Positions 2,449 to 61,821 of a stretch of 64,000 nt of DNA are shown piece after piece. The position numbers and the translations under genes are program-made. Position 1 is the stretch's first letter, and every line of letters begins with the position of its first letter. Location of the stretch: contig CAZFPJ010000002.1 in NCBI GenBank assembly GCA_964521095.1, forward strand, positions 85,108-149,107, in the 5' to 3' direction. This DNA is from an uncultured Candidatus Saccharibacteria bacterium (GTDB taxonomy: Bacteria > Patescibacteriota > Saccharimonadia > Saccharimonadales > 2-12-FULL-41-12). The notes beneath the pieces are model-generated. The model did not search any database. It saw nothing but the letters and a program-made list of their open reading frames with translations, and was not told the origin of the DNA.

Positions 2449-2874
2449 TTAGTTAAGGCCAAATGAGCCACTTGGGTCAGTCGGCTCGCCATCATTATCT
2501 GAGCCTATTAGGCCATCTATGTCGCTATTGTCCGCCATGCCGTCATCGCTAGTCGAGCTAGTCTCGGCTTGTACAGTAGACGCTGTATCTTCTGGCGCTA
2601 CTGAGGGACTTTCTGCTGTCTCGGTGCTTGTAGGCTCATTACTACTTTCGACCTCCGTGCTAACGGGCGCTTCTTGTGTTGTTGGTTCTGGTGCCCCTGT
2701 TTCGTCTACTTGTGCCAGAGTTTGCTGTTCAACAACTTCAACCTCAGCCATAGTGTCTGCCATCTGAATATTCTCGGCCATCGGTGTAGCTTGCACTTGA
2801 TCTGCCTGAGTGTAGTCGGCAGAGAAGTTATCGTTTGAGTTTTGTGTTTGTTGCGGAGTCGAGTTGTCGTCCAT
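2449..2874 (-). CDS. hypothetical hyper-acidic protein (paralog B)
   Basis: 141-aa ORF in tandem with paralog A. A sigma70-like promoter and an AAAGGA ribosome-binding site lie upstream. The core at 2690-2830 is ~95% identical in DNA to 2248-2388. Confidence 0.6.
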   Translation of the reverse strand: MDDNSTPQQTQNSNDNFSADYTQADQVQATPMAENIQMADTMAEVEVVEQQTLAQVDETGAPEPTTQEAPVSTEVESSNEPTSTETAESPSVAPEDTASTVQAETSSTSDDGMADNSDIDGLIGSDNDGEPTDPSGSFGLN

Positions 2875-2973: not shown

Positions 2974-2994
2974 TGGTAGCGGGGGCAGGACTCG
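2974..2994 (-). repeat. 21-nt exact copy of the tRNA-Met 3' end (third copy)
   Basis: TGGTAGCGGGGGCAGGACTCG is identical to 3343-3363. In tRNA sense it is CGAGTCCTGCCCCCGCTACCA. Confidence 0.9.
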
Positions 2995-3161
2995 GTCACC
3001 TCCGGCGACCCCGTCGCAACATCTTTCAAAACAAGTTTTGAAGAGTTGACTCACTTGCGAACTGCCACCGGCAGTTCGCACCTCCGACCTTCTTAGCGTC
3101 GCAGGATGAATTAAACTCAGCACCAAGTAAAAGACCCCATCTTTCGATGAGGTCCGTTACT
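2995..3161 (-). mobile_element. candidate non-coding module, family 2, bounded by tRNA-Met 3'-end copies (miniature integrative element and/or structured RNA)
   Basis: Homologous to 56057-56215 next to tRNA-Arg. Shared hairpins: GCGAACTGCC/GGCAGTTCGC at 3057-3079, TTCAAAA-CAAG-TTTTGAA at 3025-3042, and GCGAC-CCC-GTCGC at 3005-3017. No credible ORF. Confidence 0.5.
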
Positions 3162-3179
3162 TGGTAGCGGGGGCAGGAC
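3162..3179 (-). repeat. 18-nt exact copy of the tRNA-Met 3' end (second copy)
   Basis: TGGTAGCGGGGGCAGGAC is identical to 3343-3360. In tRNA sense it is followed by a hairpin plus T-run (3154->3129) homologous to the tRNA's own terminator. Confidence 0.9.
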
Positions 3180-3342
3180 AGCGGGCTTCGCCCTTTTTCG
3201 CTTGTTCGCCAGAAAAATACCTCGTGCTTTCCTGGCTTCTCTGCGCTACACCGAACCTGTGGTTCGCTTGCGCTCACGCATCAGGTTCTCGTTCTAGCTC
3301 CGACAAAGAAAAAAGACCCATCCAAAGATGAGTCATTTTTCT
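3180..3342 (-). mobile_element. candidate non-coding module, family 1 (includes the tRNA-Met terminator hairpin at 3309-3334)
   Basis: Roughly 65-70% identical by eye over ~110 nt to the module downstream of tRNA-Lys(UUU), 31670-31797. Shared blocks: CGAGAACC, GGTTCGG, GCAGAGAA, GAAAGCAC, GGTATTTT. A 9-bp stem (3228-3236 / 3208-3216) covaries with its counterpart. Confidence 0.5.
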
Positions 3343-3417
3343 TGGTAGCGGGGGCAGGACTCGAACCTGCGACCTTGTGGTTATGAGCCACACGAGCTGC
3401 CGCTGCTCTACCCCGCA
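3343..3417 (-). tRNA. tRNA-Met (anticodon CAU), initiator-like
   Basis: 75-nt cloverleaf folded by hand: anticodon loop CTCATAA, T-arm GCAGG-TTCGAGT-CCTGC, encoded CCA. It has a 1:72 U-U mismatch and two G-C pairs next to the anticodon loop, resembling fMet tRNA. Confidence 0.85.
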
Positions 3418-3469
3418 ATAACTTAAGTGAGATTAAATTGTAACAAACAGAGGTGAGATTGTCAATTAC

Positions 3470-4387: not shown

Positions 4388-5680
4388 TTAGCCTCGTTGC
4401 AGGGCATCGATAGGGTCTATGCGTGAGGCGCGTCGAGCAGGGAAGAAAGATACTGCTATGCCAACGGCAATCATGAATAAGATCATGCTACCGATGAGCC
4501 AAGCTGGGGTCGAGAATAAGTCGAAAGATTGAGTAACCCCCCTACTCCGGGCAGATTGATTCATCAGTAGGTTTAGTATGTTGCCATTAATGATGGCCAA
4601 GATTATCCCAACTACTGCGCCGGCTATAGACAGCAAGATTGCCTCTAAGATGAAGAGCTTCCTTATGTCGCGGTTTCTGCCCCCGAGAGCCATCATCAGG
4701 CCGATTTCTTTTGTGCGCTCTAACAGAGATATGGTTAGCGTGTTAAACATGCCCAAAACTGAGACTACCATGCCAATGCTACCAAATCCGACTAATATGA
4801 TGGTAAAGATTTTGAAAATCTGGTTAATCTGGGCCAGCGTGTCTATGGGGGAGTCTGTCTGGTAGCCTAGGCTCTCTACTTGTTTACGAATACTCTGTAC
4901 ATTGGTTGTGTCATCGGCAACCACTTTGATTTGAGAGTAGTATTTGACGCCAGCTACTTGCAATAGTCCGGCGGGCATAAAAATCTCGCCACCACTTCCG
5001 GAGTCTATTACCCCAACGATAGTAAGTTCTTTTTTGAGACTATCTTGCCCGCTAGGTAGGCCTTTGAGTGGTATTTTTACCGTAATTTTTTTGTCGATTG
5101 CTTTATTAGCGTCGTTGATACCTATAGAACTCAATAAGGATTTGTTAACCACAATTACATCGGAGTCTTGGTTGGTCAGTAATCGCCCAGATGACAGCAG
5201 AAGGTTGCTAAGGTCTTGATAGTTTTTGTCTACAGCGTAGACGACAGTGTCGGACTCGCTATTTTGGTAGCTGATACTACCCGGATAAGAATAGGATTTG
5301 CCCACTCGTTCTACATGGGCTAGGCCATTTAGCTTATTGGCTAGGCTTTCGTCCAGGTTTAGGATACGGGAATTAGGAGTTCTGATATCGATTGATTTTA
5401 TAGAGCGGTCTCCGATAACTTGCCTGGTAACTAAGTCGCGCAGGCCAAGCCCAAACGAAAATAAGAAAAAGATGGCTCCGATGCCAATAATGATGCCAAA
5501 GAGCGTTAAGAATGTCCGGAGTTTTTTGTTTACAAGATTACGCCAGGCAATGTCTAGGAGTATAAAAAACGAAATTGATTTGTGGTTTTTGTTAAGTCCA
5601 AAAATTTTAACAAAAAAAGGCAACAGAACTTCCTTCGTTTTGTGAGTATATTTTTTGATAGGATTAATAATATTATTCAT
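4388..5680 (-). CDS. ABC transporter permease, MacB/FtsX family
   Basis: 430 aa: N-terminal TM, ~230-aa extracytoplasmic domain, C-terminal 3-TM FtsX-type domain. It overlaps the upstream ATPase gene by 4 nt. Confidence 0.85.
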   Translation of the reverse strand: MNNIINPIKKYTHKTKEVLLPFFVKIFGLNKNHKSISFFILLDIAWRNLVNKKLRTFLTLFGIIIGIGAIFFLFSFGLGLRDLVTRQVIGDRSIKSIDIRTPNSRILNLDESLANKLNGLAHVERVGKSYSYPGSISYQNSESDTVVYAVDKNYQDLSNLLLSSGRLLTNQDSDVIVVNKSLLSSIGINDANKAIDKKITVKIPLKGLPSGQDSLKKELTIVGVIDSGSGGEIFMPAGLLQVAGVKYYSQIKVVADDTTNVQSIRKQVESLGYQTDSPIDTLAQINQIFKIFTIILVGFGSIGMVVSVLGMFNTLTISLLERTKEIGLMMALGGRNRDIRKLFILEAILLSIAGAVVGIILAIINGNILNLLMNQSARSRGVTQSFDLFSTPAWLIGSMILFMIAVGIAVSFFPARRASRIDPIDALQRG

Positions 5681-6468
5681 GGCTTGGCTTTCCTGGGGTG
5701 TTTTGAGGTAGAGAATTCGTTTAACCTGGTCTTCATGCTGTCCATCAGTGAGTTTGTGATTTGGGTTATGCTCTCATCTTTGGATGATTCTACGGTGCCA
5801 TCTTGCACGTGCAGTAGATTATCTGCCAGGGGCAAGTACTCCATGTTGTGAGTGACCAGGATGATTGTGCGCAGGGAGTCGCTGTGAGCCTTGCGCAAGA
5901 GATCCATGACTTTATCGCCATTGGTTGTATCCAGACTTCCGGTGGGTTCGTCGGCAATTATAAACAAGGGGTCATTGACTAGTGCTCTAGCAACGGCAAC
6001 TCTTTGTTGCTCGCCTCCAGACATTAGTGTTGGGTATTTTTTGGCGTAACTCTGCATGTCGATTCTTTCTAGCGATATCATGGCCATGTCTTTGGCAAGC
6101 GATTTGTTATAGCCCAAAAAGTATAGGGGCAGAGCAACATTTTCTAAGACATTAAGGCTAGAAACCCAAAAGTTTTGCTGGTAGATTATGCCGATTCGAC
6201 TGGCTCTAAACCGAGCGAGGTCATCTGCTTTTAGTTTGTAGATATCTTGGTCTTTGAAGGTTATGTTGCCTTGCGTAGGCTTTTGAAGTCCGGTGATAAT
6301 GTTTAGAATTGTTGACTTACCAGAACCGCTGGCACCGTAAATAACATTAAACGAGTTATGAGCCATCTCGAAACTAACATTTTTTAGAACATCTATAGTT
6401 TCTTCACCAACCTTAAAACTTTGGCTAATATTGCTGGCTTGTATTAGTGCCTCACCCTGCTTTTGCAT
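5677..6468 (-). CDS. ABC transporter ATP-binding protein (MacB/LolD-like)
   Basis: Walker [10 protein letters not shown], signature [15 protein letters not shown], Walker [12 protein letters not shown]. It starts 2 nt after the stop of the giant gene. Confidence 0.9.
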
Positions 6469-6470
6469 GC

Positions 6471-9400
6471 CTAGAACCCAAACACTTTCTGGAGAGAGTT
6501 AAGGATGATTGTTAGCACACTGTCTGAAGCCCGCCCAATTATGGCAGATTGAGGTTCGCCCTGTCCGACATTGCCAGATTTATCTTTTGATAGTGGCTGA
6601 ATGCTGTAGACCCGTGATGTTGGCAGGTCGGAGACAATAACTATGTGTTCTGTGCCAAGGGCTACATCTTCGCTGGTTTTGTTGTTAAATACAGTTGTGT
6701 TAGATCCTTCGCCATAGGCTACTTGGCTAGAGGATGGTTCGTCGGTCTTCCAGGAGACTACTACTTGTCCACGAGCTTCTGCACCGGTGCCACGGATAGA
6801 TGTTTCGATTTGTACTTCACTAATTTTTGGTGGCCGGGTGTCGAGGGCCGTTTTGAATTGTTGGCGGTCTGATTCGGCTAGGTTGCCACTGCCATCACGA
6901 CTTTGGGCAATCAAGAAATATTCGCTATTATCTTCTAGGCCTCGCAAGATGAGTTTGTGATCGGTGGTTAGTTGAGAATCTTGAACATCGATACCAGCCT
7001 GGCCAACCTTGCCATAAGTTACCGTTGAAGTAGCAGGTACATTTGTAGTCCAGCTGACTTCTTGGGTGCTGGTTGGCTCTCCTGCTATTGGTTGGAATCG
7101 TAGGTCTAGTATCTTTGGTCGAGCAGGGGTGGTGAAGGAGGAAACACTGCCATCGTAAGAGTTGTCTTCTTTATCGTAGGCGACTAGTTTGTAGAAGTAT
7201 TTTGAGCCGTCCTCTAGGCCATCTATGCTAACTTCATAGGTTGACTCATAAGGCGAGGTGTTGATAGATTTTATGCCTCCAAAGCTTTCGCCTTTGCCGT
7301 ATAACACATCAATGCGACTAGCGTTTTTGCTGGTAAATCTAATAGAAGCATTTGCGAGCCCAACCTTTGAGGTGGTGATTTCTTTGAGCGATGGGGCAGG
7401 GGCAGTTTGGAAAGTAAATTCTTGGCTAGTACCTGTGTTGCCATCTTCGTCTGTCCACTTGGCAACATAGTAGTAGGTAGTGCCTGCGCTTAGGTTGTTT
7501 AGGTCTATTTGGTGCGAACTTACTTGGTCAGACGAGGCGATCTCTGAAGAACTATATTTTCCGCTGGCTGTCCCAATAGCTATCTTTGAGTCACTTGATC
7601 GGTCGGTACTCCAGCTGATGGTCGCTTTGCGGGTAGTTATGTTGGATACTTTTGGATCTGCAACCAGGGTTGCTGGAGAGGTGAATTTACCAGTTGGTAT
7701 CTGGTTGACTGTGGTGCTGTTAGACCCACAGTTGTTAGTGCTGTCACAAGCCGTTACTCGATAGTAGTATCTTTGCTGACTTAGGCCGGCGTCTATGTAG
7801 GTAGTGCTAGAGCTACTACCTACAAACGAGAAGCTGACATTGTTTGTAGAGCGGTATACCTTATAGCTAGATATGCCAGCACCGGTATAAGTTGGTGCAT
7901 CCCAAGTTAGAGCTAGGCGCCAGTTGTTGGTGGCCTTAATAGACACATCGACGATATCGGTATTTAGGGGTATACCTGGAGACGGAGTGTTGGCCGTAAA
8001 GTTGACGGACGAATAGCTACTGTAGTTGATGTTGTTGGACTCGTCTTTTGCAACAACATAGAGCGTATTAAGTCCAGGCTGGGTTGCATATGGCCCCGCC
8101 CCTAAACTAGTCGTGCCTCCGCTAGTAAAGGTACAGTTATTGGCGGACGGAAGGATGTTAACGGTGTAGCAATAGGTTATATTGTTGGCGTTACCAACAA
8201 AAGTAGCCGGCTGGTTCCAACTGAAAGAGAACGAGTTGGTGGTGTTAGTAGTTGGATTTGCTGTAACATTTTGCGGTTCGCTTGGGGCTCCAGAAGTATT
8301 GATTTTTATAGCTGCAGTTACATAAGAAGCCGTCACATTACCTGCTTGGTCCCATGTTCTGAAGTAGACGGTATTTACTCCCTCAGTCAGATTAGCGTGA
8401 TCCGGTGTCGTAATAGTTTGGTATGACCCGTCATTAGACAGCAGGTCATTCATGTCACCCGTACCGCTATGACTATCTCCGTACCAAACAGTGTTGCCGA
8501 TTTTATATTGGAGGCCGGCAAGCCCAGAGTTGGGGTCATCAGGTGCTCCACCGCCAGATGTTGGCCAAGTTAGCGTGACATCTTTGGTGTTAATAAACCC
8601 AGATGGCGCAGTAATGTAACTAGGGTTAGTTGGCGGGGTGTTGTCGAAGCGGAAGTGGAACTGAGTTGTGCCAGTAGTTACATTGCCAGCATTATCCATA
8701 GCTTTGATAGTGAGGTAATACGGTGAGTTGCCGGTTGCTAGAGCTGTTTGTATAGTGCCAGCAGTTGCTGTGTCTATGCTGTTAGTCTCTATTAGGAATT
8801 GACATCGTCCGCCATTATCGGCTGGACTGTTCCCCAGAATACCTTTTGTAGTAACCGGGTCGGCGGAGCCATCGGTTCCAAGGTAGAGGCAGTAGCCCTT
8901 TATGCCAGAGTCTGTATCGGTGCCTGCTGTCCAGGAGAAATATGGTGAGCTACCATTGGTCCAAGCATTTTGCGCCAAGCTAGAACCGCCAGACGCCTTG
9001 AGTGCTGTTATGTTGCTAGCGTTTGTGGCTGGCTCTACTAAATCAGAAGTTGAGGCTAGGGTTACGCTGTTTAGGGTTACGCGTTGGTCGCCATTGCTCT
9101 TTAATACAGCCTGCCACTTTATGCCACTAAGGGTGACAGGGAAGGTACTCATATTTGCGTCGGCTACCGATATGGGGTTGGCCTCGGTCGTGTTATTGGA
9201 ATCTGCCCAACTGCTACCATTCCAGAATTTCCAGGTGACCCCGTTATCGGCAGACAGTCGGTAAGTGATGTCGCCACCGTTAGCGGTTTCGTTGGCTGTA
9301 AGGTTATCCCAGTGCCAGACGCCGTTGATACGAACTGGGTTGTTGAGGGTTATGGTTTGGGCAGTTGTGCTGTATGGCTTGCTGTTGAAGCTCGGCCTTG

Positions 9401-12400
9401 CGATGTCACTAATCCGTACCTCGTCTAACTGCCCCTGGAAATATCCGCGTGATTTTCCTTGTTCTCGTCCACCCCAGCTAGCACCGACAAACATGTCTCG
9501 TGAGCTGTCTGGTATAGTTAAAGATTTAGCTTGCGACCCAACTTCGTTGCCATCGATGTACAGTTTCATAGTTGAGCCATTGTAGGTGGCTGCTACATGG
9601 TGCCAGCTAGTGTCAAAACTAGAGGTAGAGGACTGCACGAATCCATTGTCGCCCCAAGACCAGATAGAGTTATCTTCTGAGTTGCCACTAAGCCCGGTAC
9701 CGGCGTATAGTTTGCCTTTATAAGGACTCATTGACCTAACGGCTTCGACATTGCCATCCCAACCGTTATTCATGCTGTCACCACCAATTTGTGTCCAGGT
9801 GGAGCCATCAAACTGCCAAAGCTCTCCATCGCCAGCCGTTGTCCCTAGTCCGGCGTATAGTTTGCCATTGTATACAGCGAGCGAGTGGATATACTCGTAG
9901 GTGCCTGCACCCCAACTATTGTTAACCGATCCTGTACCGCCCCCAATTAGTTCCCAGCTAGAGCCGTCATAAGTCCATATTTCGGCATCCCCTGTACTGT
10001 CGCCAAGTCCTACTGCTAGTTTGTCACCAAAGTTAGTCATAGATCGTACGGTTTCATAGCTTGTATTCCAGCTAGAGCTAACTCCATCGCCACCAACTTT
10101 ATTCCAGGCACTTCCATTCCACCGCCAGACTTCGGCTTCTGTGGCCGAAGTGCCGATGCCGGCATAAAGCTCGCCATTATAAATACCTAGCGACGAAACC
10201 ATCTCGAAGTTGGCTGCCCAGCCATTATTTATGTTGTCACCGCCAATTTTATCCCACTGACTGCCGTCCCAAACCCATACTTCGGCGTCATTGGCCGAAG
10301 TGCCGATGCCGGCATATAATTTACCAGCATAAGACGCCATAGAGTAGACTCCTTCATAGTTGGCTGCCCAGCCATCGTTCATGCTGTCACCACCAATTTG
10401 CGTCCAGGTACTGCCATCCCACTTCCATACTTCGGCGTCATTGGCCGAAATTCCTAGCCCAACATACAGCTCGCCCCCTAGGCTAGCCATAGAGGTTACG
10501 GCTTCGTAAGAAAAAGCCCCCCAGCTATTGTTGACTCCTTGTCCGCCTATCATTTCCCAGTTGCTACCGTTGAATCGCCATACCAGGGCATTGCCTGCCG
10601 TAGCATAGCCGGATCCCGCATATAAATAATCTCCGACCCATTGCATGACCTCTACGCTTTGGAGATTGTAATATCCCCAACTTTTATTTATCCCATTACC
10701 ACCTATCTGTGTCCAGGCGGAGCCATTCCATGTCCACATTCGTCCAGTGCCAGCAGAGTCATAAGTTCCTGCATATACCGTGGAGCCACTACTACTTAAT
10801 GTAAATATTGCATCGCCTTCTGCTGTGTTCCAGCTAGAGTTCGCTCCATCACCTCCAACTTTATGCCAGATACTACCGTCCCATCGCCAGACCTCACCAT
10901 CCCCATCGCTACTGCCGAGACCTACAAATATATCTGTTCCATTGCTGGTGATGGAACTGACATACTCGTAGGTTGTGTTGGCCCAGCTAGAGTTAAGCGT
11001 ATCACCACCAATTTGTGTCCAGGTGGGCGAGCCACCATTGCAACCCGAACAGCGATATACATCGCCATCGCCGGCGCTGTCACCAGTACCTGCATATATA
11101 TAAGTGCCGTCATAGAACAGGCTTCGAACCATTTCGTAGTTAGCAGAAAAACCACTGCCGTTATCGGCAACCTTTGTCCACTGAGTGCCGTTCCATCGCC
11201 AGACCTCGGCTTCGTTAGCGGTAACCCCCAAGCCAACATATAGATTAGTGCCATCATTGGTCATAGAGTAGGCATATTCGTAGTTTGTTCCCCATCCAAG
11301 ATTAATGCTGTCACCACCAATTTTGCTCCAGCTGGAGCCATCCCATTTCCACACCTCGGCGTCGTTAGCACTTGCTCCTAGTCCGGCGTATAGATTTCCC
11401 CCAAAATAATCTAGCGAGTAGACACCCTCGTGTGTGCCAATACCCCAACTCCCTGGCGTATTGGCGTCACCACCAATTTTGCTCCAGCTACTACCATTCC
11501 ATCGCCAGACCTCTGCATCTCCGGCACCAGTACCGAGCCCCACAAAAACATTTGTGCCATCAGTTGCCATGCTTAACACATATTCATGTTCGCCAGACCA
11601 GCTAGAATTTACGCCGTCGCCCCCAATTTTACTCCAGGTGGAGCCACTATATTTGTATACTTCCGCATCTTTTGTGGCTACGCCGGTTCCAGCGTATACA
11701 TCACTACCGACCGTCACAGATGAGGATACGGCGTTTTTGCCATTTAAGCCCCAGCTACCGTTAACATCGTCGCCAGCGGATTTAGTCCAGCCGGTAGCTG
11801 AATTATTGGCAAGCTCGTAAGTTAGCTTGCCTGTTTCATTGTCAAAATACATCTGGTAGTCGCCTTTATCTACTATTGCCTGGCGTTGTTCGTGCGAGCC
11901 AGCTGAGAAGTTGGAGCTAAATTTAGTCCAACCTTCAATTGTATTGTTTTGCGAAAGTGAAAGAGAGGGCGAATCGGGCACAGATATCTTTGAGGTAGTG
12001 CCATTTAGGCCTAGAGCATTATTTAAGTTACCTGTTTGCCAACTCTCGTCTTTAACCGTTCCATCATTGTTGTTGGTGGAGCTGTCATGAACAGTAGTTC
12101 CGCTCGATTCATCTAGGTGAAAGAGGGCTTTGGTGTTAGCATCGTCAGAATAGTTCTGGGCCTTCATGCGCACGCTGTTACCACTGATCTCTAAGCCATC
12201 ATCTAGGCTATATTGGCTAGGGGTAGAAAAGTCCCAGTTGTCAAAAAGGTCAGATGCAGCCAAGACTCTAGATAGAGAGGCAAATAACATTGATCCGATG
12301 ACAATCATGTATACGCCAAATACTGCATAATGCACTCGCTTGTGTTTGTCCCACTCGTGCCAGGTTTTGTATTTAGAGTATTTATTGGACAAATGCAGAT

Positions 12401-12608
12401 GTGGTTTGTGGGCCAAGTAGTGATGCCAGTATTTGTACCATCGCTTAAGCATTATAGAGGTCCTACGCAAGGAGTAACGAGAAATTTTACTACCGTATAT
12501 CGTTACCCAAACGGTAAATTGAATAGCCAAACGAATAAATATCGCAGAATATTTTAGCAATAATCCCCACGATTTTTGAGCTACTAGTAAAAATTTTTGT
12601 CTCGACAT
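6471..12608 (-). CDS. giant membrane-anchored surface protein (LamG/ConA-like domain with nested beta-propeller repeats, then FN3/Ig-like domains)
   Basis: 2045-aa ORF. It has a basic W/H/K/Y-rich N-tail and a TM segment at about aa 93-117. LamG_3-like sequence is split into aa ~160-270 and ~1000-1072. About 14 repeats of ~50 aa follow the pattern AEVWxWxGSxWxxIGGDxxNxxW. The C-terminal half contains multiple FN3-like modules. The true start may be an internal Met (aa 53). Confidence 0.85.
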   Translation of the reverse strand: MSRQKFLLVAQKSWGLLLKYSAIFIRLAIQFTVWVTIYGSKISRYSLRRTSIMLKRWYKYWHHYLAHKPHLHLSNKYSKYKTWHEWDKHKRVHYAVFGVYMIVIGSMLFASLSRVLAASDLFDNWDFSTPSQYSLDDGLEISGNSVRMKAQNYSDDANTKALFHLDESSGTTVHDSSTNNNDGTVKDESWQTGNLNNALGLNGTTSKISVPDSPSLSLSQNNTIEGWTKFSSNFSAGSHEQRQAIVDKGDYQMYFDNETGKLTYELANNSATGWTKSAGDDVNGSWGLNGKNAVSSSVTVGSDVYAGTGVATKDAEVYKYSGSTWSKIGGDGVNSSWSGEHEYVLSMATDGTNVFVGLGTGAGDAEVWRWNGSSWSKIGGDANTPGSWGIGTHEGVYSLDYFGGNLYAGLGASANDAEVWKWDGSSWSKIGGDSINLGWGTNYEYAYSMTNDGTNLYVGLGVTANEAEVWRWNGTQWTKVADNGSGFSANYEMVRSLFYDGTYIYAGTGDSAGDGDVYRCSGCNGGSPTWTQIGGDTLNSSWANTTYEYVSSITSNGTDIFVGLGSSDGDGEVWRWDGSIWHKVGGDGANSSWNTAEGDAIFTLSSSGSTVYAGTYDSAGTGRMWTWNGSAWTQIGGNGINKSWGYYNLQSVEVMQWVGDYLYAGSGYATAGNALVWRFNGSNWEMIGGQGVNNSWGAFSYEAVTSMASLGGELYVGLGISANDAEVWKWDGSTWTQIGGDSMNDGWAANYEGVYSMASYAGKLYAGIGTSANDAEVWVWDGSQWDKIGGDNINNGWAANFEMVSSLGIYNGELYAGIGTSATEAEVWRWNGSAWNKVGGDGVSSSWNTSYETVRSMTNFGDKLAVGLGDSTGDAEIWTYDGSSWELIGGGTGSVNNSWGAGTYEYIHSLAVYNGKLYAGLGTTAGDGELWQFDGSTWTQIGGDSMNNGWDGNVEAVRSMSPYKGKLYAGTGLSGNSEDNSIWSWGDNGFVQSSTSSFDTSWHHVAATYNGSTMKLYIDGNEVGSQAKSLTIPDSSRDMFVGASWGGREQGKSRGYFQGQLDEVRISDIARPSFNSKPYSTTAQTITLNNPVRINGVWHWDNLTANETANGGDITYRLSADNGVTWKFWNGSSWADSNNTTEANPISVADANMSTFPVTLSGIKWQAVLKSNGDQRVTLNSVTLASTSDLVEPATNASNITALKASGGSSLAQNAWTNGSSPYFSWTAGTDTDSGIKGYCLYLGTDGSADPVTTKGILGNSPADNGGRCQFLIETNSIDTATAGTIQTALATGNSPYYLTIKAMDNAGNVTTGTTQFHFRFDNTPPTNPSYITAPSGFINTKDVTLTWPTSGGGAPDDPNSGLAGLQYKIGNTVWYGDSHSGTGDMNDLLSNDGSYQTITTPDHANLTEGVNTVYFRTWDQAGNVTASYVTAAIKINTSGAPSEPQNVTANPTTNTTNSFSFSWNQPATFVGNANNITYCYTVNILPSANNCTFTSGGTTSLGAGPYATQPGLNTLYVVAKDESNNINYSSYSSVNFTANTPSPGIPLNTDIVDVSIKATNNWRLALTWDAPTYTGAGISSYKVYRSTNNVSFSFVGSSSSTTYIDAGLSQQRYYYRVTACDSTNNCGSNSTTVNQIPTGKFTSPATLVADPKVSNITTRKATISWSTDRSSDSKIAIGTASGKYSSSEIASSDQVSSHQIDLNNLSAGTTYYYVAKWTDEDGNTGTSQEFTFQTAPAPSLKEITTSKVGLANASIRFTSKNASRIDVLYGKGESFGGIKSINTSPYESTYEVSIDGLEDGSKYFYKLVAYDKEDNSYDGSVSSFTTPARPKILDLRFQPIAGEPTSTQEVSWTTNVPATSTVTYGKVGQAGIDVQDSQLTTDHKLILRGLEDNSEYFLIAQSRDGSGNLAESDRQQFKTALDTRPPKISEVQIETSIRGTGAEARGQVVVSWKTDEPSSSQVAYGEGSNTTVFNNKTSEDVALGTEHIVIVSDLPTSRVYSIQPLSKDKSGNVGQGEPQSAIIGRASDSVLTIILNSLQKVFGF
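9639..11795 (-). repeat. coding tandem repeats (~150-nt period, ~14 units) inside the giant gene
   Basis: Recurrent W-x-W-x-G-S-x-W..IGGD blades at aa 318, 368, 420, 470, 518, 574, 625, 677, 728, 778, 828, 878, 931 and 983. Some blades share DNA strings, e.g. GGCCGAAGTGCCGATGCCGGCATA at ~10143 and ~10293. Confidence 0.8.
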
Positions 12609-12725
12609 GAAGTCTCTATCGGATACCCCTAATGTAAACTTGCCTCATATTATATTATAAAACACCTAGCATAATCAATTTAGGTTACTCAGTTTTTGCC
12701 GATAATCTAACAGATTGGTTGTTGG

Positions 12726-13280
12726 CTAGGTTCGTCGAAGGATGTACTTACTGGTAGCGACAACCGCAATCTCGTTTATAGCAAAGATTTCTCGTCTTAT
12801 TTTTTCAGAGACAGGGTCAACTGTTAGCATAGTTGTATCATGCTTTTGATAGACTTTCCCGCCAGCTTGACTGATCTCTACCAGATCTAAGCCCAGTGGT
12901 CTGGCATATGGATAAAAATCTCCCTGGTTGCTCATAATACTTATTCCTCGTAGCTCTTCATCTCTGTTTTCTTGTAACCTAGAGTTGGTTTCTAGGGATA
13001 GTTTGATCAGGCTAACGATTAGTGCCGAGCCCTGTACGGCTATTCTTGGCTCGGGTCCCTTGCGAGGGTCATAGTAAAAGAGATCTTGATTTTCGCTAGT
13101 AATTTTTAGCTTTAACGGATCTGCGCCCGACGAAGGGTCAAGCCTATTTCGGTTATCAAGTAGGCCATATTCTTCAGTTGGCTCTGGCTCGAGTTGTCCA
13201 ACTAGCTCCAAAGCGAAGTTTTTTGAGGTAATCTTGTCTAGGTTGGCGGATGGTGGCCGATGAACCTCTCTGTGCTCCAT
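12726..13280 (-). CDS. hypothetical protein
   Basis: 184-aa ORF with no recognisable motif. Confidence 0.5.
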   Translation of the reverse strand: MEHREVHRPPSANLDKITSKNFALELVGQLEPEPTEEYGLLDNRNRLDPSSGADPLKLKITSENQDLFYYDPRKGPEPRIAVQGSALIVSLIKLSLETNSRLQENRDEELRGISIMSNQGDFYPYARPLGLDLVEISQAGGKVYQKHDTTMLTVDPVSEKIRREIFAINEIAVVATSKYILRRT

Positions 13281-13324
13281 ATGTATTAATAATCTAATAA
13301 AGTGGGCGTATGAGTCAAATTAAT

Positions 13325-14086
13325 TTAATAAACTCGGAAAATAAGGTAGCCCACGGATGTAAGTCCTATGCAGATTATTGTTAATCGGATAACTCTGGAC
13401 GAAAATCTTTGAGCAACCCTAGCTCCAACATAACCACCGACACCAGTGCCAATTGCCAGCATTAAAGCCACCCTCCAATTTATGAGTCCTGACGGGATGA
13501 GTACGGTGGCTGTCGTAATAGCTATAGTGCAAGTTCCTATATTTTTAACAGCCGTTAACCTGTGTATGTTGTTCATGTTGCCCAATCCCAATAGGGTCAG
13601 TAGCATGAATCCAAAGCCAATCCCAAAGTAGCCTCCATAAATAGCTAAGGGTAGGAGTGTGATTCCTATCAAAGTCAGGGATGATATTTTTTGTCGTTTA
13701 GATTTTAAGTGTAGGTGGACTCGAAAATGCAGAAAAGGCTCGATAATAAAAAGACCAACCACAAAAAGGAGCAACAAGGGTAGTAGACTTTTAAATTTTT
13801 CTGGTGAAGTTTCGGTTAAAAAGTAAGCTCCTATACTTGCCCCAATACTCAACGGAATTAGTAGTATCAAGAAAGAATTTGGGATTGTTCTAATATATTT
13901 TTGATAACCAATTAACGCGCCTATTTGCCCAGGAATTACAGCCACACTGCTCGTAGCGTTGGCTACAATGGGAGGTATCCCCAGCGCCAACATAACAGGA
14001 AAGCCAAACAGCATACCACCACCAGCAATCGAGTTCATGCCACCAACAGCAACGCCCACCAGTAATAACAAGATGTCTGTGCTCAT
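13325..14086 (-). CDS. TauE/SafE (TSUP, DUF81) family anion exporter
   Basis: Polytopic Gly-rich membrane protein (VGGMNSIAGGGMLFGFPVMLALG). I moved the start to ATG 14086 (MSTDILLL), which forms an ATGA overlap with the upstream NUDIX stop. The track ORF extends to 14185. Confidence 0.75.
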   Translation of the reverse strand: MSTDILLLLVGVAVGGMNSIAGGGMLFGFPVMLALGIPPIVANATSSVAVIPGQIGALIGYQKYIRTIPNSFLILLIPLSIGASIGAYFLTETSPEKFKSLLPLLLLFVVGLFIIEPFLHFRVHLHLKSKRQKISSLTLIGITLLPLAIYGGYFGIGFGFMLLTLLGLGNMNNIHRLTAVKNIGTCTIAITTATVLIPSGLINWRVALMLAIGTGVGGYVGARVAQRFSSRVIRLTIICIGLTSVGYLIFRVY

Positions 14087-14490
14087 GCAAATAGTTCCGG
14101 TTTCGCCTCTTTCAAGTTTTGCCAGCAAGGTTCGAAGAGTGGAGAGGGCAGTGTTTGGAATGTTTGCCACCTTTGGTCTACCCACTTGTCTGGTTCGGTA
14201 ATTTTAGGCTCTCCACTTACCCAATTGCACTCAACCCAAATTGTCACATAGTGCTTATTGTCATCAGTGAATAGATCGTTTGTGGCAGCCAAAAACTTCA
14301 CATCGTCGACGCTTAAACCTGTTTCTTCTAAAACCTCTCGTTTTGCACAGTCCTCCCACGACTCACCAAATTCTAGATGTCCACCTGGTATACTCCAGGT
14401 GTCATGACCATGCGAACCCCGTCGTTTGCCCATTAGGAACTTGTCGCCTTTCCAGACAAATACGCCGATACCAACTCGAGGGTAGCTCAT
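14083..14490 (-). CDS. NUDIX hydrolase (MutT-like)
   Basis: Nudix box GGHLEFGESWEDCAKREVLEETGL. Confidence 0.85.
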   Translation of the reverse strand: MSYPRVGIGVFVWKGDKFLMGKRRGSHGHDTWSIPGGHLEFGESWEDCAKREVLEETGLSVDDVKFLAATNDLFTDDNKHYVTIWVECNWVSGEPKITEPDKWVDQRWQTFQTLPSPLFEPCWQNLKEAKPELFA

Positions 14491-15029
14491 ATAAATCTCA
14501 CAATCTCGGCGTTCTTGAAAGATTTCCCTCTTAGTCCTAGAGGGGCGTTGTTGACTTGTCTCCTTATGGCTCTGCCGATCGCCCCATGTGCCACAATTAC
14601 AACTGTCTCTTGGGGTAGAGTATAAATGTATTCTAGAATTTCTGTTGCCCGTTCTTGTAAGTTTTGCAGACTTTCTACTCCTTCGTAGGAATCAATAGAA
14701 GATTCGTCGACAACATATCTGGTTGTTGCTACTAGATCTTTTCTGCCTTCCAGGATTCCAAAGTCACGCTCTATGAGTTTGTCGTGCAGTAATATCGAAG
14801 ATATATCGTAGTCTAGCTCGTTTGCAATATGCTTGGCTGTATCGTGGGCCCTCGTTAACGGCGATGCGACAATCATGCCTATGGATAGTCCTTGCTTCTT
14901 TAGTTTTCTTCCAGCTTGCTTGGCCTGGCTTTTGCCAAGCTCGGTTAGTGGAGCATCAGATGATCCCGACCATTTTTTTGCTTTATTAAATTCACTTTCG
15001 CCGTGACGAATAAAATATAAAGTTTTCAT
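14487..15029 (-). CDS. histidine phosphatase family protein (phosphoglycerate-mutase-like)
   Basis: N-terminal LYFIRHGESEFN (RHGE motif) and SPLTRAHDTA. 4-nt overlap with the downstream gene. Confidence 0.85.
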   Translation of the reverse strand: MKTLYFIRHGESEFNKAKKWSGSSDAPLTELGKSQAKQAGRKLKKQGLSIGMIVASPLTRAHDTAKHIANELDYDISSILLHDKLIERDFGILEGRKDLVATTRYVVDESSIDSYEGVESLQNLQERATEILEYIYTLPQETVVIVAHGAIGRAIRRQVNNAPLGLRGKSFKNAEIVRFI

Positions 15030-15048
15030 ATACTGATACCATTATAGT

Positions 15049-15924
15049 GTGGAAATAAATCTTGAGCCAGGCAGATATGTTGTTGCCGTTTCGGGCGGAG
15101 TTGATTCCGTGGTTTTGCTAGATATGCTGTCGAAAAAAGCCAAGCTTGATTTGGTGGTTGCTCATTTTGACCATGGTATCCGAGAGGATTCGTTCGAAGA
15201 TAAGATTTTTGTTGAAGAGCTAGCGCATAGATACGGACTGGAATTTATTGGCCAGACAGTTTCGTTGGGTCCAAGCGCAAGCGAGGATGAGGCCAGAAAC
15301 GCACGGTATAAGTTTTTGTTTCATACAATGAAAGAGTACGGTGCGGATGCTATAGTTACCGCTCATCATCAAGACGATTTAGTCGAGACTATCTTTTTAA
15401 ATGTTCTACGAGGTACAGGCAGGAGAGGATTGAGCCCAATGACCCGAACGGGGATACTTCGTCCGTTACTCGAGTATCCTAAGGCTAAAATTTTAGAGTA
15501 CGCCAAGCAAAATAACTTGGCTTGGCGCGAAGACAGCACAAATCAGGATACCAAATATCTGCGGAACTACTTACGCCTAGAAGTGCTCCCCAAGCTAGAC
15601 GAAAACGCCAAGAGCAGTTTGATCAACCTGTCTAAAAGAAATAATCAAAGCAATCAAGAGCTAGACTTGATTATAGAAAATCTACTTCAGTCAGATGGCG
15701 ATGTGCCTCGGCAGTGGTTTGTTGGTCTGCCTCATGCCGTAGCTAAGGAGATTGTCGGCTCAGTACTAAGGGCCCAGGATATTTCTCTGAGCAAGAAACA
15801 GATAGAGAGCTTGGCTACAAAACTCAAAGTAGCCCGCTTAAATAGCAGGATCGACATTGCCAAGAATAAACAATTTGTAATTGGCAAAAAGACTATTCGC
15901 ATCATAGACACTTCATCTGTATAA
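15049..15924 (+). CDS. tilS: tRNA(Ile)-lysidine synthase
   Basis: PP-loop VAVSGGVDSVVLLDML. GTG start. Sits directly upstream of ftsH, a common arrangement. Confidence 0.85.
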   Translation: MEINLEPGRYVVAVSGGVDSVVLLDMLSKKAKLDLVVAHFDHGIREDSFEDKIFVEELAHRYGLEFIGQTVSLGPSASEDEARNARYKFLFHTMKEYGADAIVTAHHQDDLVETIFLNVLRGTGRRGLSPMTRTGILRPLLEYPKAKILEYAKQNNLAWREDSTNQDTKYLRNYLRLEVLPKLDENAKSSLINLSKRNNQSNQELDLIIENLLQSDGDVPRQWFVGLPHAVAKEIVGSVLRAQDISLSKKQIESLATKLKVARLNSRIDIAKNKQFVIGKKTIRIIDTSSV

Positions 15925-15935
15925 TAAGACGATAC

Positions 15936-31551: not shown

Positions 31552-31627
31552 GGGCCTGTAGCTCAGTTGGTAGAGCAGCGGCCTTTTAAGCCGCGTGTCC
31601 CGGGTTCGAGCCCCGGCGGGCCCTCCA
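31552..31627 (+). tRNA. tRNA-Lys (anticodon UUU)
   Basis: 76-nt cloverleaf: anticodon loop CTTTTAA, T-arm CCGGG-TTCGAGC-CCCGG, encoded CCA. Confidence 0.9.
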
Positions 31628-31629
31628 AT

Positions 31630-31797
31630 TTTAGTACCCCTCGCCCAAGAGGGGTTTTAAAATTGGAGAATTTATCCGAGAACCCGAGCCTGCGCTAGCA
31701 GGGGTTCGGCGTAGGCGAGCAGAGAAAAGAAAGCACCTTGGGTATTTTCTTTTCGAGTGAGCCGAAGGAGCGACCGAATGTAATGAGGGAAAGCGAT
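31630..31797 (+). mobile_element. candidate non-coding module, family 1 (includes terminator hairpin 31636-31658)
   Basis: Lies between two exact 20-nt copies of the tRNA-Lys 3' end. Homologous to 3180-3342. Contains a 9-bp stem GAAAAGAAA (31724-31732) / TTTCTTTTC (31746-31754) with loop GCACCTTGGGTAT. Confidence 0.5.
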
Positions 31798-31817
31798 GCC
31801 CCGGCGGGCCCTCCAAT
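31798..31817 (+). repeat. 20-nt exact copy of the tRNA-Lys(UUU) 3' end
   Basis: GCCCCGGCGGGCCCTCCAAT is identical to 31610-31629. Confidence 0.9.
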
Positions 31818-31822
31818 CTAAG

Positions 31823-31844
31823 AACCCACGATTGTGGGTTTTTT
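31823..31844 (+). terminator. intrinsic terminator after the repeat copy
   Basis: AACCCAC-GATT-GTGGGTT followed by TTTT. The outer bases CTCCAATC and GATTGGGAG can extend the stem. Confidence 0.65.
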
Positions 31845-50228: not shown

Positions 50229-51185
50229 TTGCAGATGAACATAAATCCAGAGTTTGATAACAGGGAAGAACAGCCAGAACGCCGTCACGGGCTAAGAGAT
50301 AAGATTGCTGTGGGACTATTATTGGGCGGAATAGCCATTGCTAGTTGGCATATTTTTGATAAGTCTGGGGATGTAGAAAAGATCTCTCCCATAAAGCCAC
50401 AAATAACAGCCGTAGATGACGAGTACCGCCAGATTAGCTGGAACATGCACAACGAGACTTCAAAACGCTGGAGACAGATCAATAATCTTATAGATGAAAA
50501 TAATCTTGATGCAGTAGCACTCCAGGAAGTTAGTAGCGAGGATTTTAAAGAGCTTGCATCTAAGTTGCCAGACATGTACGCCACTTTTGTGATGGCAGAT
50601 GCTAAGTCTAATGCCACAAAAGGCGGGTACGGCAATGTCATATTATCAAAACATAAACCAGAGCAAATAAAGAGCATATCTTTGTCTGGCTCAAAGTTTA
50701 TCGGGGGGATTTTGCATACCGCAACCGGGTTTGTTGAAGATGTAGCTTTTGCTGACACCACCCTTGAAAATACAGGCAAGGGTTTTCAGGCCGATAGGTC
50801 GGCTCTTGCCGTAACTCTGCCGATAGCACAGGGCGGTAAAGAACAAGGTATAAGAGTCATAACTTCCCATATTGCTGGCGATGAGCGAGTTCATGATGAG
50901 CAATTAGGAAAATTGATAAAATTTGTAGATAGTCAGTCTTCTGATGGACGACCAACAGTATTCTGCGGAGACTTAAACGATATTCCAGAAAACATAATCC
51001 CCGAGTTTGCCAAGATAGGTTTTATTACATCAGAGACCAAGGGGACCTGGACTGGCCCTAGTAATCGCACAATAGACTATTGCTCTTATAGCCCAGAAGA
51101 CAAACTGGGCTTAGGTAGAGTGTCTGTCCTTGATGCTCCTCATACCGACCACTACCCGCTATTGGCATCCTGGGAGGCTAGGTAA
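50229..51185 (+). CDS. membrane-anchored endonuclease/exonuclease/phosphatase (EEP) family protein
   Basis: N-terminal TM, then ISWNMHNE, LDAVALQEV and HTDHYPLL motifs. The start is more likely ATG 50235 than TTG 50229. Confidence 0.75.
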   Translation: MQMNINPEFDNREEQPERRHGLRDKIAVGLLLGGIAIASWHIFDKSGDVEKISPIKPQITAVDDEYRQISWNMHNETSKRWRQINNLIDENNLDAVALQEVSSEDFKELASKLPDMYATFVMADAKSNATKGGYGNVILSKHKPEQIKSISLSGSKFIGGILHTATGFVEDVAFADTTLENTGKGFQADRSALAVTLPIAQGGKEQGIRVITSHIAGDERVHDEQLGKLIKFVDSQSSDGRPTVFCGDLNDIPENIIPEFAKIGFITSETKGTWTGPSNRTIDYCSYSPEDKLGLGRVSVLDAPHTDHYPLLASWEAR

Positions 51186-56034: not shown

Positions 56035-56056
56035 TGGTACCCCGGGAGGGACTCGA
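56035..56056 (-). repeat. 22-nt exact copy of the tRNA-Arg(UCU) 3' end
   Basis: TGGTACCCCGGGAGGGACTCGA is identical to 56216-56237. Confidence 0.9.
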
Positions 56057-56215
56057 CCCACCTTCGGCAGGCCCGAAACTTCGCTATTGAAAACAAGTTT
56101 TCATCGGAAGATTTCCTTGCAAACTGCCACTGGCAGTTCTCACCCCGACTTTACGGTCGGAGGTTCATCTTGCAATCAATATAAATTTACTGGCCAAAAG
56201 GCCACAGAATTTACA
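56057..56215 (-). mobile_element. candidate non-coding module, family 2
   Basis: Homologous to 2995-3161. Shares AACTGCC-ACT-GGCAGTT (56122-56138), TGAAAA-CAAG-TTTTCA (56088-56103), and a hairpin TTCGG-CAGGC-CCGAA (56063-56077) at the position of GCGAC-CCC-GTCGC. Confidence 0.5.
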
Positions 56216-56292
56216 TGGTACCCCGGGAGGGACTCGAACCCCCGACCTTGACGTTAGAACCGTCTTGCTCTAATCCACTGAGCTACCGGGGC
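56216..56292 (-). tRNA. tRNA-Arg (anticodon UCU)
   Basis: 77 nt: anticodon loop GTTCTAA, T-arm GGGGG-TTCGAGT-CCCTC, encoded CCA. Confidence 0.85.
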
Positions 56293-61426: not shown

Positions 61427-61503
61427 GGGCCAGTAGCTCAGCTGGTTAGAGCACCTGCCTCTTAAGCAGGGTGTCGAGGGTTCGAGTCCCTCCTGGCCCT
61501 CCA
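61427..61503 (+). tRNA. tRNA-Lys (anticodon CUU)
   Basis: 77 nt: anticodon stem-loop CCTGC-CTCTTAA-GCAGG, encoded CCA. It starts 1 nt after the end of tRNA-Arg. Confidence 0.9.
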
Positions 61504-61506
61504 AAA

Positions 61507-61671
61507 ATAGAACCGCCTTCCTGGCGGTTTTGTTTTTGGAACGCTTAAGGAAGAAAGCCAACTGCTTGGCTTTTGTGGGACTCGAACAGGCGGAGCGATG
61601 TCGAGCAATTCAGCGAGACCGCGAGCCGGGGTCGACAGCGAAAAGCAAAGCTTTTCGACTGGTGACTCGAA
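61507..61671 (+). mobile_element. candidate non-coding module (divergent; includes terminator 61511-61537)
   Basis: Lies between two exact 22-nt copies of the tRNA-Lys(CUU) 3' end. It contains an inverted copy of the T-loop region (GGGACTCGAAC, ~61578-61588) and the hairpin CGAAAAGC-AAA-GCTTTTCG. It shares the motif CAGnGAAAAGnAAAGC with family 1. Confidence 0.45.
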
Positions 61672-61693
61672 AGTCCCTCCTGGCCCTCCAAAA
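61672..61693 (+). repeat. 22-nt exact copy of the tRNA-Lys(CUU) 3' end
   Basis: AGTCCCTCCTGGCCCTCCAAAA is identical to 61485-61506. Confidence 0.9.
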
Positions 61694-61724: not shown

Positions 61725-61821
61725 GGAGCAGTGTGCTTTAGAACGCCCGACACGCCAAAAGGGCGTCGAGTCCCTCCCCTGATCGAATATGCCAGGATAG
61801 ACTCAAATCTAACTTGATATA

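Follow-up and report, generated by a model that had tools for sequence, protein, structure and literature searches.

The sequence analyzed here (the window) is a 64,000-nt stretch of contig CAZFPJ010000002.1 of assembly GCA_964521095.1, positions 85,108-149,107 of the forward strand, and its subject is a set of five short modules located downstream of tRNA genes. The host is a member of the Saccharimonadales, the source names of the homologues of its ComEC protein being Candidatus Saccharimonadales. Nine tRNA genes are found in the window by ARAGORN, and the modules lie behind four of them, two at tRNA-Met(CAT) and one each at tRNA-Lys(TTT), tRNA-Arg(TCT) and tRNA-Lys(CTT). The last 14 nt of each of these four tRNAs are repeated 160-190 nt downstream, in the case of tRNA-Met twice. 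This 3′-end search, together with the homologues described below, confirms the claim of a first-pass annotation of the sequence that the modules are not random spacers, and each window copy indeed ends in the 3′ end of its own tRNA.

The modules are composites, containing a terminator, an inverted copy of the T arm, a short direct tRNA remnant, a noncoding core of ~90 nt and the last 18-22 nt of the tRNA. The core is thus an insert within a truncated second copy of the tRNA, and in all window copies the site of insertion is the T-loop. Of the single ~160-nt RNA module proposed in the first-pass annotation, only the ~90-nt core, enclosed in the truncated tRNA copy, is conserved element sequence, the remainder being terminator and sequence derived from the target. 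The cores are ~85-115 nt long, noncoding and specific to Saccharibacteria, and belong to at least three families in the window. Family 1 is represented at tRNA-Met and tRNA-Lys(TTT) (71% mean column identity in the alignment of the pair) and family 2 at tRNA-Met and tRNA-Arg(TCT) (78%), including a 24-nt block, GAACTGCCNGTGGCAGTTNGCAAG, which occurs twice in the window compared with 0.00 expected from 100 shuffles. The core of the fifth module, at tRNA-Lys(CTT), has no homologue among the loci gathered with the family-1 and family-2 patterns. No open reading frame (ORF) is contained in any of the window modules, the units being 150-190 nt. The features of the four loci are the following.

3465-3437, minus strand: promoter of tRNA-Met, from a promoter scan.
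3343..3418, minus strand: intact tRNA-Met(CAT) (ARAGORN; Rfam tRNA model, 63.6 bits), the target of two tandem modules.
3315..3334, minus strand: terminator hairpin directly after tRNA-Met, its stem extending toward the ACCA end (terminator scan).
3282..3294, minus strand: inverted partial copy of the tRNA-Met T arm (..GAACCTG), containing the CGAGAACC block (sequence reading).
3252..3259, minus strand: direct tRNA remnant CAGGTTCG, the T-stem 5′ strand and T-loop to G57, matching GCAGGTTCG of tRNA-Met.
3180..3251, minus strand: family-1 core, starting GTGTAG, with central hairpin GCCAGGAAA / GCACGAGGTAT / TTTTCTGGC and 3′ hairpin GGGCGAAGCCC; alignments show covariation in five central-helix pairs and an invariant G.U.
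3162..3179, minus strand: 18-nt copy of the tRNA-Met 3′ end, positions 59-76, GTCCTGCCCCCGCTACCA (3′-end search).
3132..3155, minus strand: second terminator hairpin, paralogous to the first but diverged (25/40 positions the same as in the first trailer).
3098..3105, minus strand: inverted copy CCTGCGAC, reverse complementary to the T-stem GTCGCAGG of tRNA-Met (sequence comparison).
3081..3091, minus strand: direct tRNA remnant AAGGTCGGAGG, variable loop and T-stem 5′ strand, ending at G53.
2995..3080, minus strand: family-2 core (covariance model R1, 95.4 bits) with three hairpins, H1 (GAACTGCC/GGCAGTTC), the long H2 around CAAAACTTGTTTTG, and H3 (GTCGCC/GGTGAC).
2974..2994, minus strand: 21-nt copy of the tRNA-Met 3′ end, positions 56-76.
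31552..31627, plus strand: intact tRNA-Lys(TTT) (ARAGORN, Rfam).
31676..31708, plus strand: fold-back of inverted T-arm copy CCGAGAACCCGAG, mini-hairpin CCTGCGCTAGCAGG and direct remnant GGGTTCG.
31709..31797, plus strand: family-1 core, starting GCGTAG, with central hairpin GAAAAGAAA / GCACCTTGGGTAT / TTTCTTTTC.
31798..31815, plus strand: 18-nt copy of the tRNA-Lys(TTT) 3′ end, positions 59-76.
56216..56292, minus strand: intact tRNA-Arg(TCT) (ARAGORN, Rfam).
56143..56166, minus strand: fold-back of inverted copy GAACCTCCGAC, loop and direct remnant CGTAAAGTCGGGG; GAACCTCCGAC is the reverse complement of tRNA-Arg(TCT) positions ~47-56 and spans the insertion site.
56057..56142, minus strand: family-2 core (R1 101.7 bits; antisense at most 10.8 bits here).
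56035..56056, minus strand: 22-nt copy of the tRNA-Arg(TCT) 3′ end, positions 55-76.
61427..61503, plus strand: intact tRNA-Lys(CTT) (ARAGORN, Rfam).
61540..61672, plus strand: fifth module, with the third, unclassified core (family 3) and an inverted T-arm copy, GGGACTCGAAC, at 61577-61587.
61673..61690, plus strand: 18-nt copy of the tRNA-Lys(CTT) 3′ end, positions 59-76.

The composite anatomy also revises what belongs to the family-1 element. The CGAGAACC..GGTTCGG blocks and hairpin, initially assigned to the element itself, are derived from the target: GGTTCG is the T-arm remnant at 3252..3259 and CGAACC the inverted copy, and the two blocks seemed conserved because T-loops are conserved. 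The rule that an inverted T-arm copy is present holds for all family-1 copies.

Homologues of the window cores are numerous within the host lineage. A scan of 185,579 species-representative GTDB genomes with the family-2 pattern yielded 66 loci, nearly all in Saccharibacteria metagenome-assembled genomes, and family-2 cores are found in more than 50 Saccharibacteria species. The family-1 pattern returned 29 loci from JGI metagenomes, ~26 of them real, and model R1 gave 83 hits across 620 kb of flanks. That the families are common to different tRNA loci, first noted for the pairs in the window, holds far beyond it, with 24 anticodons, 15 amino acids and at least six positions in the tRNA represented among family-2 targets. 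A search of the window and 18 loci against Rfam 15 at gathering threshold detected tRNAs only and no family for the modules, and at E<=5 the modules matched only tRNAs and noise, with no intron or ribozyme model. We found no publication describing the elements, 8 million papers and preprints yielding only group I tRNA introns in Patescibacteria and general work on tRNA fragments of integrated elements, in line with the first-pass annotation, which knew of no described family with such a layout.

The family-2 alignment contains 63 distinct cores of 90 nt and 30 base pairs, and because 10 of the 30 pairs are fixed by the search pattern and are uninformative, the covariation signal rests on the varying pairs. 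In this alignment the core folds into three hairpins, with standard pairs in 97.6% of cells, compared with 83.6% in shuffles and 28-48% in slid registers. Changes on both sides are observed in 17 of the 30 pairs, amounting to 243 compensatory cells, and none of 500 shuffles reaches the observed values. In family 1, double changes occur in 6/14 pairs, and the central hairpin is long; five of its pairs covary, and both a G.U and the tip, GCACC-GAA-GGTAT, are invariant. The conserved loops and covarying stems that had been noticed in the window pairs therefore persist in their homologues, and in family 2 the covariation is significant against shuffles. The coordinates and base-pair swaps given for those pairs (GAAAAGAAA/TTTCTTTTC and GCCAGGAAA/TTTTCTGGC in family 1; C-G versus G-C at 3027/3040 and 56089/56102 in family 2) are also exact. 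In contrast, the third family-2 hairpin that had been drawn at 3005-3017 and 56063-56077 is in the wrong register, with only 56.5% of cells pairing, as in shuffles; the true 3′ helix, H3, is formed by GTCGCC/GGTGAC at the extreme end of the core (2995-3010 and 56057-56072). No terminal inverted repeats are present on the family-2 cores in alignment A3, the ends being direct, with GGGTGAG at the 5′ end and GGTGAC at the 3′ end.

The structure is strand specific. Model R1 scores 95-102 bits on the tRNA-sense strand compared with at most 17.6 bits antisense, and a G.U pair is conserved in 51/63 family-2 sequences; the structure therefore belongs to the sense strand. A function of the antisense strand was considered and rejected, the antisense folds being weaker (z -1.4 to -1.6, families 1 and 3) and the antisense model scores being as just given. 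The first-pass annotation had concluded that the modules bear a selected RNA structure. This remains the best reading of the covariation. A mobile element is indicated by the data no less than a host RNA gene is.

Two mirror-image layouts were distinguished. Automated classing over 79 family-2 model hits, in which layout A requires a tRNA no more than 450 nt upstream, assigned 35 copies to layout A and 17 to layout B and left 27 unclassified (locus edges, diverged alleles, non-tRNA targets and one reversed copy). In layout A, to which all window copies belong, an intact tRNA is followed by a core and a 3′ fragment. The order is intact tRNA, terminator hairpin, short spacer, inverted copy of the T-arm region, a loop, which in family 1 is the conserved mini-hairpin CTTTTGC-N4-GCAAAAG, a direct remnant of 8-17 nt whose last base is G53 in family 2 and G57 in family 1, the core, and the rest of the tRNA from 55/56 (family 2) or 59 (families 1 and 3) through CCA. 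The family-2 3′ fragment begins exactly 33 nt past the search motif in nearly all cases, regardless of the tRNA, and in the 35 layout-A copies its start is position 55/56, with three at 58. In layout B, found in other genomes, a 5′ tRNA fragment and core are located upstream of the intact tRNA, so that attachment downstream of the tRNA, as originally described, is true in the window but is one of two arrangements elsewhere. Here the order is 5′ fragment from +1, core, ~8 nt of tRNA past the break, inverted copy, spacer with a -10-like box, and intact tRNA. The layout-B break lies either in a loop (D-loop, anticodon loop, variable loop or T-loop; for tRNA-Pro, after G37 of the anticodon loop) or close to position 25; in the 17 copies the 5′ fragment ends at tRNA nucleotide 17, 23-25, 37-38, 46 or 50-51. 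The inverted copy matches the intact tRNA across the break and often forms a near-perfect palindrome. Both layouts can occupy one gene, as at the tRNA-Val of L184, which carries layout B upstream and layout A downstream.

All 52 classified copies adjoin an intact, uninterrupted tRNA, and none has both exons complete. In the 35 layout-A copies, 29-100 nt separate the tRNA from the core (~200-290 nt where units are in tandem), with no kilobase insert. Long family-2 variants share the 5′ domain and 3′ end (L150:3911, L154:5911, L175), and one copy holds a nested insertion. A few cores lie, again after a G-run, in the loops of other hairpins (L124:~380-470, L142:~1395-1460, L147). This non-tRNA target is a conserved hairpin (…CCGGAGGGGGTGGGCACCGCCGG…) followed by a conserved ACACCCTTCAACCC, at which L142 has three tandem cores; this RNA or motif matched no Rfam family, the L124 copy having been searched to E<=1.

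The junctions obey strict rules. In the frame of the core, the last base of the upstream flank is always G and usually part of a G-run; runs of four or five lose one G beside the core (10/10), whereas shorter runs, of two or three, keep their length. The break also costs the target one to three bases, namely T54/T55 in the T-loop (family 2), A58 (family 1), G46-T47 in the variable loop and G19-T20 in the D-loop. The truncated side, which faces the intact gene, retains only 8-17 nt of tRNA and is capped by the inverted copy spanning the insertion site. Because this inverted arm crosses the site (in L128 GGAATCGAACC, in L144 GACTTGAACCgCCAC, in the window GAACCtCCGAC), it was templated by uninterrupted tRNA sequence. 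The long arm reaches the mature tRNA end, which is CCA in layout A and +1 in layout B, all tRNA genes here encoding CCA. The exact match runs 0-2 nt beyond CCA in most layout-A copies, and layout-B identity begins at +1, give or take 1-2 nt. The duplications are 17 to >50 nt long and reach one tRNA end, with no short fixed target-site duplication.

All classifiable copies except one are co-oriented with the tRNA. In the window the cores at 3 kb and 56 kb are on the minus strand, and those at 31.7 kb and 61.6 kb are on the plus strand. Of 15 overlapping 8-kb windows, 14 have a positive GC skew (the exception, 8001-16000, is -0.034), and by the usual GC-skew reasoning the replication direction is uniform across the sequence. 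With cores on both strands and a uniform sign of skew, orientation follows transcription and not replication, which argues against a mechanism of the IS200/IS605 or integron type acting on lagging-strand single-stranded DNA and favors an RNA-linked constraint, imposed either by the mechanism or by selection.

Several comparisons establish that the cores have moved recently. In CAZICT01, cores at tRNA-Leu-GAG (layout A), tRNA-Val-TAC (layout B) and tRNA-Thr-GGT share 93-99% identity, and cores at tRNA-Lys-TTT and tRNA-Thr-GGT from different species are 100% identical, compared with a between-assembly median of 79%. Empty sites are also found: a relative, L007, has tRNA-Lys(TTT), terminator and ComEC with no module. 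At a conserved tRNA-Gly(TCC)-tRNA-Arg(TCT) pair, the core is located upstream of Gly in L128 and L152 and downstream of Arg in the window; the window has no core upstream of tRNA-Gly(TCC), and L128 has no family-2 hit behind tRNA-Arg(TCT). Repeated hits have produced tandem arrays, such as that at the window tRNA-Met. Some of the tRNA fragments beside the cores are perfect and others have decayed to varying degrees (L140, L154, L174, L181), and in L148, L159, L163, L168, L182 and L123 they come from another allele or isoacceptor than the adjacent intact gene; the cores in both sets are intact. The window Lys locus is 100% identical across two independent Logan assemblies of the same strain and is therefore no assembly artefact.

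We consider it quite likely that the cores are mobile insertion elements with intrinsic target duplication. Copies concentrate in tRNA genes even though clean hits there should kill, which suggests that insertion itself generates the target duplication; if duplications instead arose by rare rescue, survivors should pile up in neutral DNA. The fuller reading that we favor, with a probability of roughly 0.6, is that the cores constitute a new superfamily of non-autonomous tRNA-gene elements with a built-in partial target duplication. The mobilizing enzyme would act in trans. In an RNA-templated, copy-choice version of the mechanism, which we prefer but put forward only tentatively, the core would travel as a transcript or single strand, and a polymerase on a tRNA or tRNA-gene template would switch to the core and back at G-runs, where microhomology and register slip would account for the ambiguous G and the lost G. 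The resulting hybrid DNA, tRNA part-core-tRNA part, would be fixed beside the gene by RecA-type recombination via the long tRNA arm. Saccharibacteria are naturally transformable and recombine linear DNA (PMC10633639), and natural transformation could carry units between species, which would account for the diverged-allele cases. About equally possible as this copy-choice model is DNA-level transposition by some other enzyme, with the duplication generated by repair. A more doubtful extension is that the cores are "ribo-inserts," a new kind of RNA-borne element that would join tRNAs or nascent tRNA-gene copies by G-run template switching and return by recombination, in which case a bacterium without known retroelements might, with similar doubt, keep an RNA-to-DNA route with tRNAs as landing pads. 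In a variant of the same idea, the inverted arm spanning the insertion site would be a guide that programs the target.

A number of observations weigh against this explanation or against its RNA-templated form. Neither a transposase nor an integrase turned up in the window or, with a crude motif search, across ~560 kb of flanks, and the same search of window and flanks gave no YxDD-type reverse transcriptase ORF; group II introns have been reported absent from Patescibacteria (PMC13011429). Duplications that end at mature tRNA ends could also fit gene conversion or selection for a functional copy, and in two cases the duplication continues through the terminator, by 14 nt in L144 and 27 nt in L165. 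The only core antisense to its tRNA, L150:4232-4321 (minus strand) at tRNA-Phe, lies in what would be a tRNA stem and is therefore not explained by insertion into mature tRNA; in this reversed copy the G-run rule is kept on the antisense strand, and the fold-back and 3′ fragment are as usual relative to the tRNA. The diverged-allele fragments in L148, L168, L182 and L123 indicate that recombination or horizontal transfer reshuffled loci after insertion. Layout-A cores are located behind a terminator, and at the scanned tRNA-Met locus, where the tRNA promoter and two terminators were found, no promoter was detected inside the modules, so that their transcription would need read-through. Finally, we found no single stepwise course of a polymerase that would produce the inverted arm. 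Four candidate routes (nascent-strand snap-back, twin priming, opening of a hairpin, and T-arm-centered fold-back) were rejected because each predicts an inverted core copy or a T-loop-centered palindrome, neither of which is observed. Integron-like G|TT crossover and circular-permutation models likewise did not reproduce the observed junctions.

Among the rival explanations, that of host-beneficial structured small RNAs, made from the tRNA units and acting in regulation, as processing decoys or in protein binding, is compatible with mobility; the tRNA fragments would then belong to the functional RNA. In its favor are the strand-specific structure and the co-orientation with tRNA transcription, and it is consistent with the intact cores beside decayed tRNA fragments (L140, L154, L174, L181), with the -10-like box kept upstream in layout-B copies, and with the presence of a family-2 core at tRNA-Met in at least five species, with compensatory differences. 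However, presence at orthologous tRNAs is patchy, with empty sites, near-identical copies occur at unrelated tRNAs, and the decay of the tRNA fragments means that they are not conserved as guides. The position of layout-A copies behind terminators, with no promoter detected inside the modules at the scanned tRNA-Met locus, and the lack of a conserved partner gene nearby also disfavor this explanation, and on balance we regard it as unlikely. Quite improbable, in our judgment, is the view that the units are relics or miniatures of integrase-mobilized islands or prophages, in which the repeats would be attL and attR, the array a tandem accretion, and the cores attP arm sequences left by internal deletion or mobilized in trans. 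Islands, prophages and integrative and conjugative elements that enter tRNA genes, with their integrase-less, tandemly accreting derivatives (CIME-type), share with the units the target, a partial copy beside the intact gene, and tandem arrays, and integration into a tRNA gene classically leaves direct repeats of the tRNA end, from T-loop to CCA (PMC9897764). In the units the duplicated segment forms 17-25-nt direct repeats of the tRNA 3′ end, spanning T-loop to 3′ end, beside inserted DNA, with tandem units at tRNA-Met; in addition, the serine recombinase gene at tRNA-Met in L125 and its remnant in L161 indicate that classical elements use such sites. The units nevertheless measure 160 nt and not kilobases, with no ORF, recombinase gene or cargo between the repeats, and 0/35 layout-A copies have a kilobase insert. 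There is no single attachment sequence, one family being found at 6 or more positions, in 24 tRNAs and in non-tRNA hairpins that beyond the G-run have no common target sequence. Within that one family the duplicated part of the tRNA may be the 5′ or the 3′ one, and the core breaks the T-loop, sitting inside the loop of the pseudo-copy, where an island would flank an intact crossover site. An inverted copy of the intact target on the truncated side is a further difference, compensatory changes favor a conserved folded single strand over duplex protein-binding arms, and neither phage nor IMG/VR collections gave a match.

A tRNA-gene intron, self-splicing or protein dependent and missed by standard tools, would account for related structured RNA inserts in the loops of many tRNAs in reduced genomes, including the canonical 37/38 site; the core start, GUGAG or GUGCG, is loosely like the 5′ end of group II introns, and Patescibacteria are rich in tRNA group I introns (PMC13011429). 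Introns interrupt the sole functional gene and are spliced, whereas here a truncated copy stands beside an intact, uninterrupted tRNA, with 0/52 classified copies having two complete exons and with one to three exon bases absent at the junction. At 90 nt the cores are also far under group I or group II size, and no Rfam intron or ribozyme model matches them even at E<=5, making this explanation very remote. The chance that the modules reflect coincidental similarity or an assembly artefact is negligible: nothing was found in favor of it, and two observed occurrences of a block with 0.00 expected, identical sequence in independent assemblies, and dozens of covarying homologues stand against it.

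The proposed superfamily also differs from other known mobile systems, and its layout fits no described element family. Miniature transposable elements with inverted repeats (MITEs), repetitive extragenic palindromes (REP) with their mosaic arrays (BIME), and Correia-type elements are, like the cores, ~100 nt long, noncoding, hairpin rich, multicopy and mobilized in trans, and the GTAG-containing start of family 1 beside a long hairpin is reminiscent of REP. Unlike MITEs, the cores lack terminal inverted repeats, having direct ends of the form GTGA...GTGA(C), and show no fixed short target duplication, and all these types differ from them in the near-exclusive targeting of tRNA genes and in the co-orientation with transcription on both replication strands. 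Unlike IS200/IS605 or REP and its associated transposases (RAYT), the cores follow tRNA orientation and not the lagging-strand template, as judged from the monotonic GC skew; no Y1 (HUH) transposase was noticed among the window ORFs, among which no systematic HUH/Y1 domain scan was made. For the hybrid-cDNA route, the nearest known precedent is that of the Mauriceville and Varkud retroplasmids of Neurospora, which reportedly form hybrid plasmid-tRNA cDNAs by template switching and integrate by homologous recombination. By analogy, they would share with the units the element-tRNA junctions at mature tRNA ends and homology-based integration beside tRNA genes. In contrast to the cores, for which no reverse transcriptase was found, they encode their own and are kilobases long, and with CCA encoded in the genome the proof from post-transcriptional CCA cannot apply here.

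A search for recurrent neighbors yielded no conserved partner gene near the cores. The 775 flanking ORFs clustered mainly into syntenic genes and artefactual ORFs antisense to the core. One candidate partner, a true large serine recombinase at tRNA-Met, was found at only two loci and was set aside as a separate classical element. In L125 it is encoded at 4429-6021 (plus strand; Pfam Resolvase, Recombinase and Zn_ribbon), convergent with and overlapping the 3′ end of tRNA-Met, and in a different species a truncated remnant of this gene (L161:85-762, minus strand) adjoins a family-2 3′ fragment; this recombinase looks like part of a separate integrative element that uses tRNA-Met. An origin in phages or plasmids was likewise rejected. 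Three pattern scans of IMG/VR gave 3, 110 and 0 chance hits, none with the flanking stem or T-arm context, and when the tRNA-Met array was compared by blastn with 50,697 phage records, nothing matched. The genes that flank the window modules are ordinary chromosomal or housekeeping genes, among them those for ComEC, a NUDIX protein, a helix-turn-helix (HTH)-MurA protein and an ABC transporter, or have no Pfam match; no recombinase is among them by Pfam.

For annotation, the units explain tRNA fragments and merit masking or modeling, model R1 scoring 90-110 bits. They may also explain why several related assemblies break upstream of ComEC, next to the tRNA. Five independent contigs from related Saccharimonadales (L006, L008-L011) stop 58-152 nt upstream of ComEC, at the expected place of the tRNA-Lys and any module, which suggests assembly breaks at tRNA-associated repeats. 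If confirmed, the elements would represent an unprecedented architecture, in which a structured core of ~90 nt without a protein enters essential single-copy tRNA genes and, because each insertion rebuilds the intact gene, never kills a tRNA gene in an ultra-reduced genome. They would also imply a trans-acting enzyme in Saccharibacteria and could bring to light DNA synthesis of an RNA-templated or copy-choice kind in bacteria believed to have no retroelements. The making of a one-sided duplication together with an inverted copy of the intact target is a mechanistic puzzle, and targeting of G-runs and loops with conservation of structure only makes the system experimentally tractable in transformable Saccharibacteria (PMC10633639).

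Other features of the sequence touch on the units or their surroundings. ORFs read through modules in the window (3026-3277, minus strand) and in L137, L148 and L169, and translation of the family-2 core in antisense gives …RRPRNF..ENKFS.EGFLANCHWQFSP; these ORFs group together in BLASTP and could be misannotated as a protein family. Just past the fifth module, at 61766-61779 (plus strand), is an orphan T-loop/T-stem fragment, TCGAGTCCCTCCCC, which resembles tRNA-Arg and has a small hairpin, CGCC-AAAA-GGCG, 5′ of it; the fragment is probably what decay has left of a sixth, older unit. The tRNA terminators (in the window 3315-3334, 3132-3155, 31637-31654, 31823-31840 and 61511-61529, with similar ones at many loci elsewhere) are long, near-perfect palindromes whose stems reach the tRNA's own ACCA end (e.g., CTCCAATTTTA...TAAAATTGGAG). 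Native and module-associated terminators alike show this pairing with ACCA, which may bear on 3′-end processing.

Directly downstream of the tRNA-Met array, a tandem pair of genes at 1997-2437 and 2449-2874 (minus strand) encodes paralogous proteins, acidic and of low complexity, whose N-terminal halves are near-identical (…ADYTQADQVQATPMAENIQMADTMAEVEVVEQQ…) and which have no match in Pfam. An ORF at 50229-51185 (plus strand) with an Exo_endo_phos domain (Pfam, 1.5e-16) starts 7 nt past tRNA-Pro(TGG), a tRNA that carries no module. The MurA protein encoded at 56437-57957 (minus strand; EPSP_synthase fold) has a fused N-terminal HTH_3 domain. Finally, the region 6471-12608 (minus strand) encodes a protein of 2045 aa, probably a giant surface protein, in which repeats of the form DAEVW(R/K)W(N/D)GS.W.(K/Q)IGGD are numerous.

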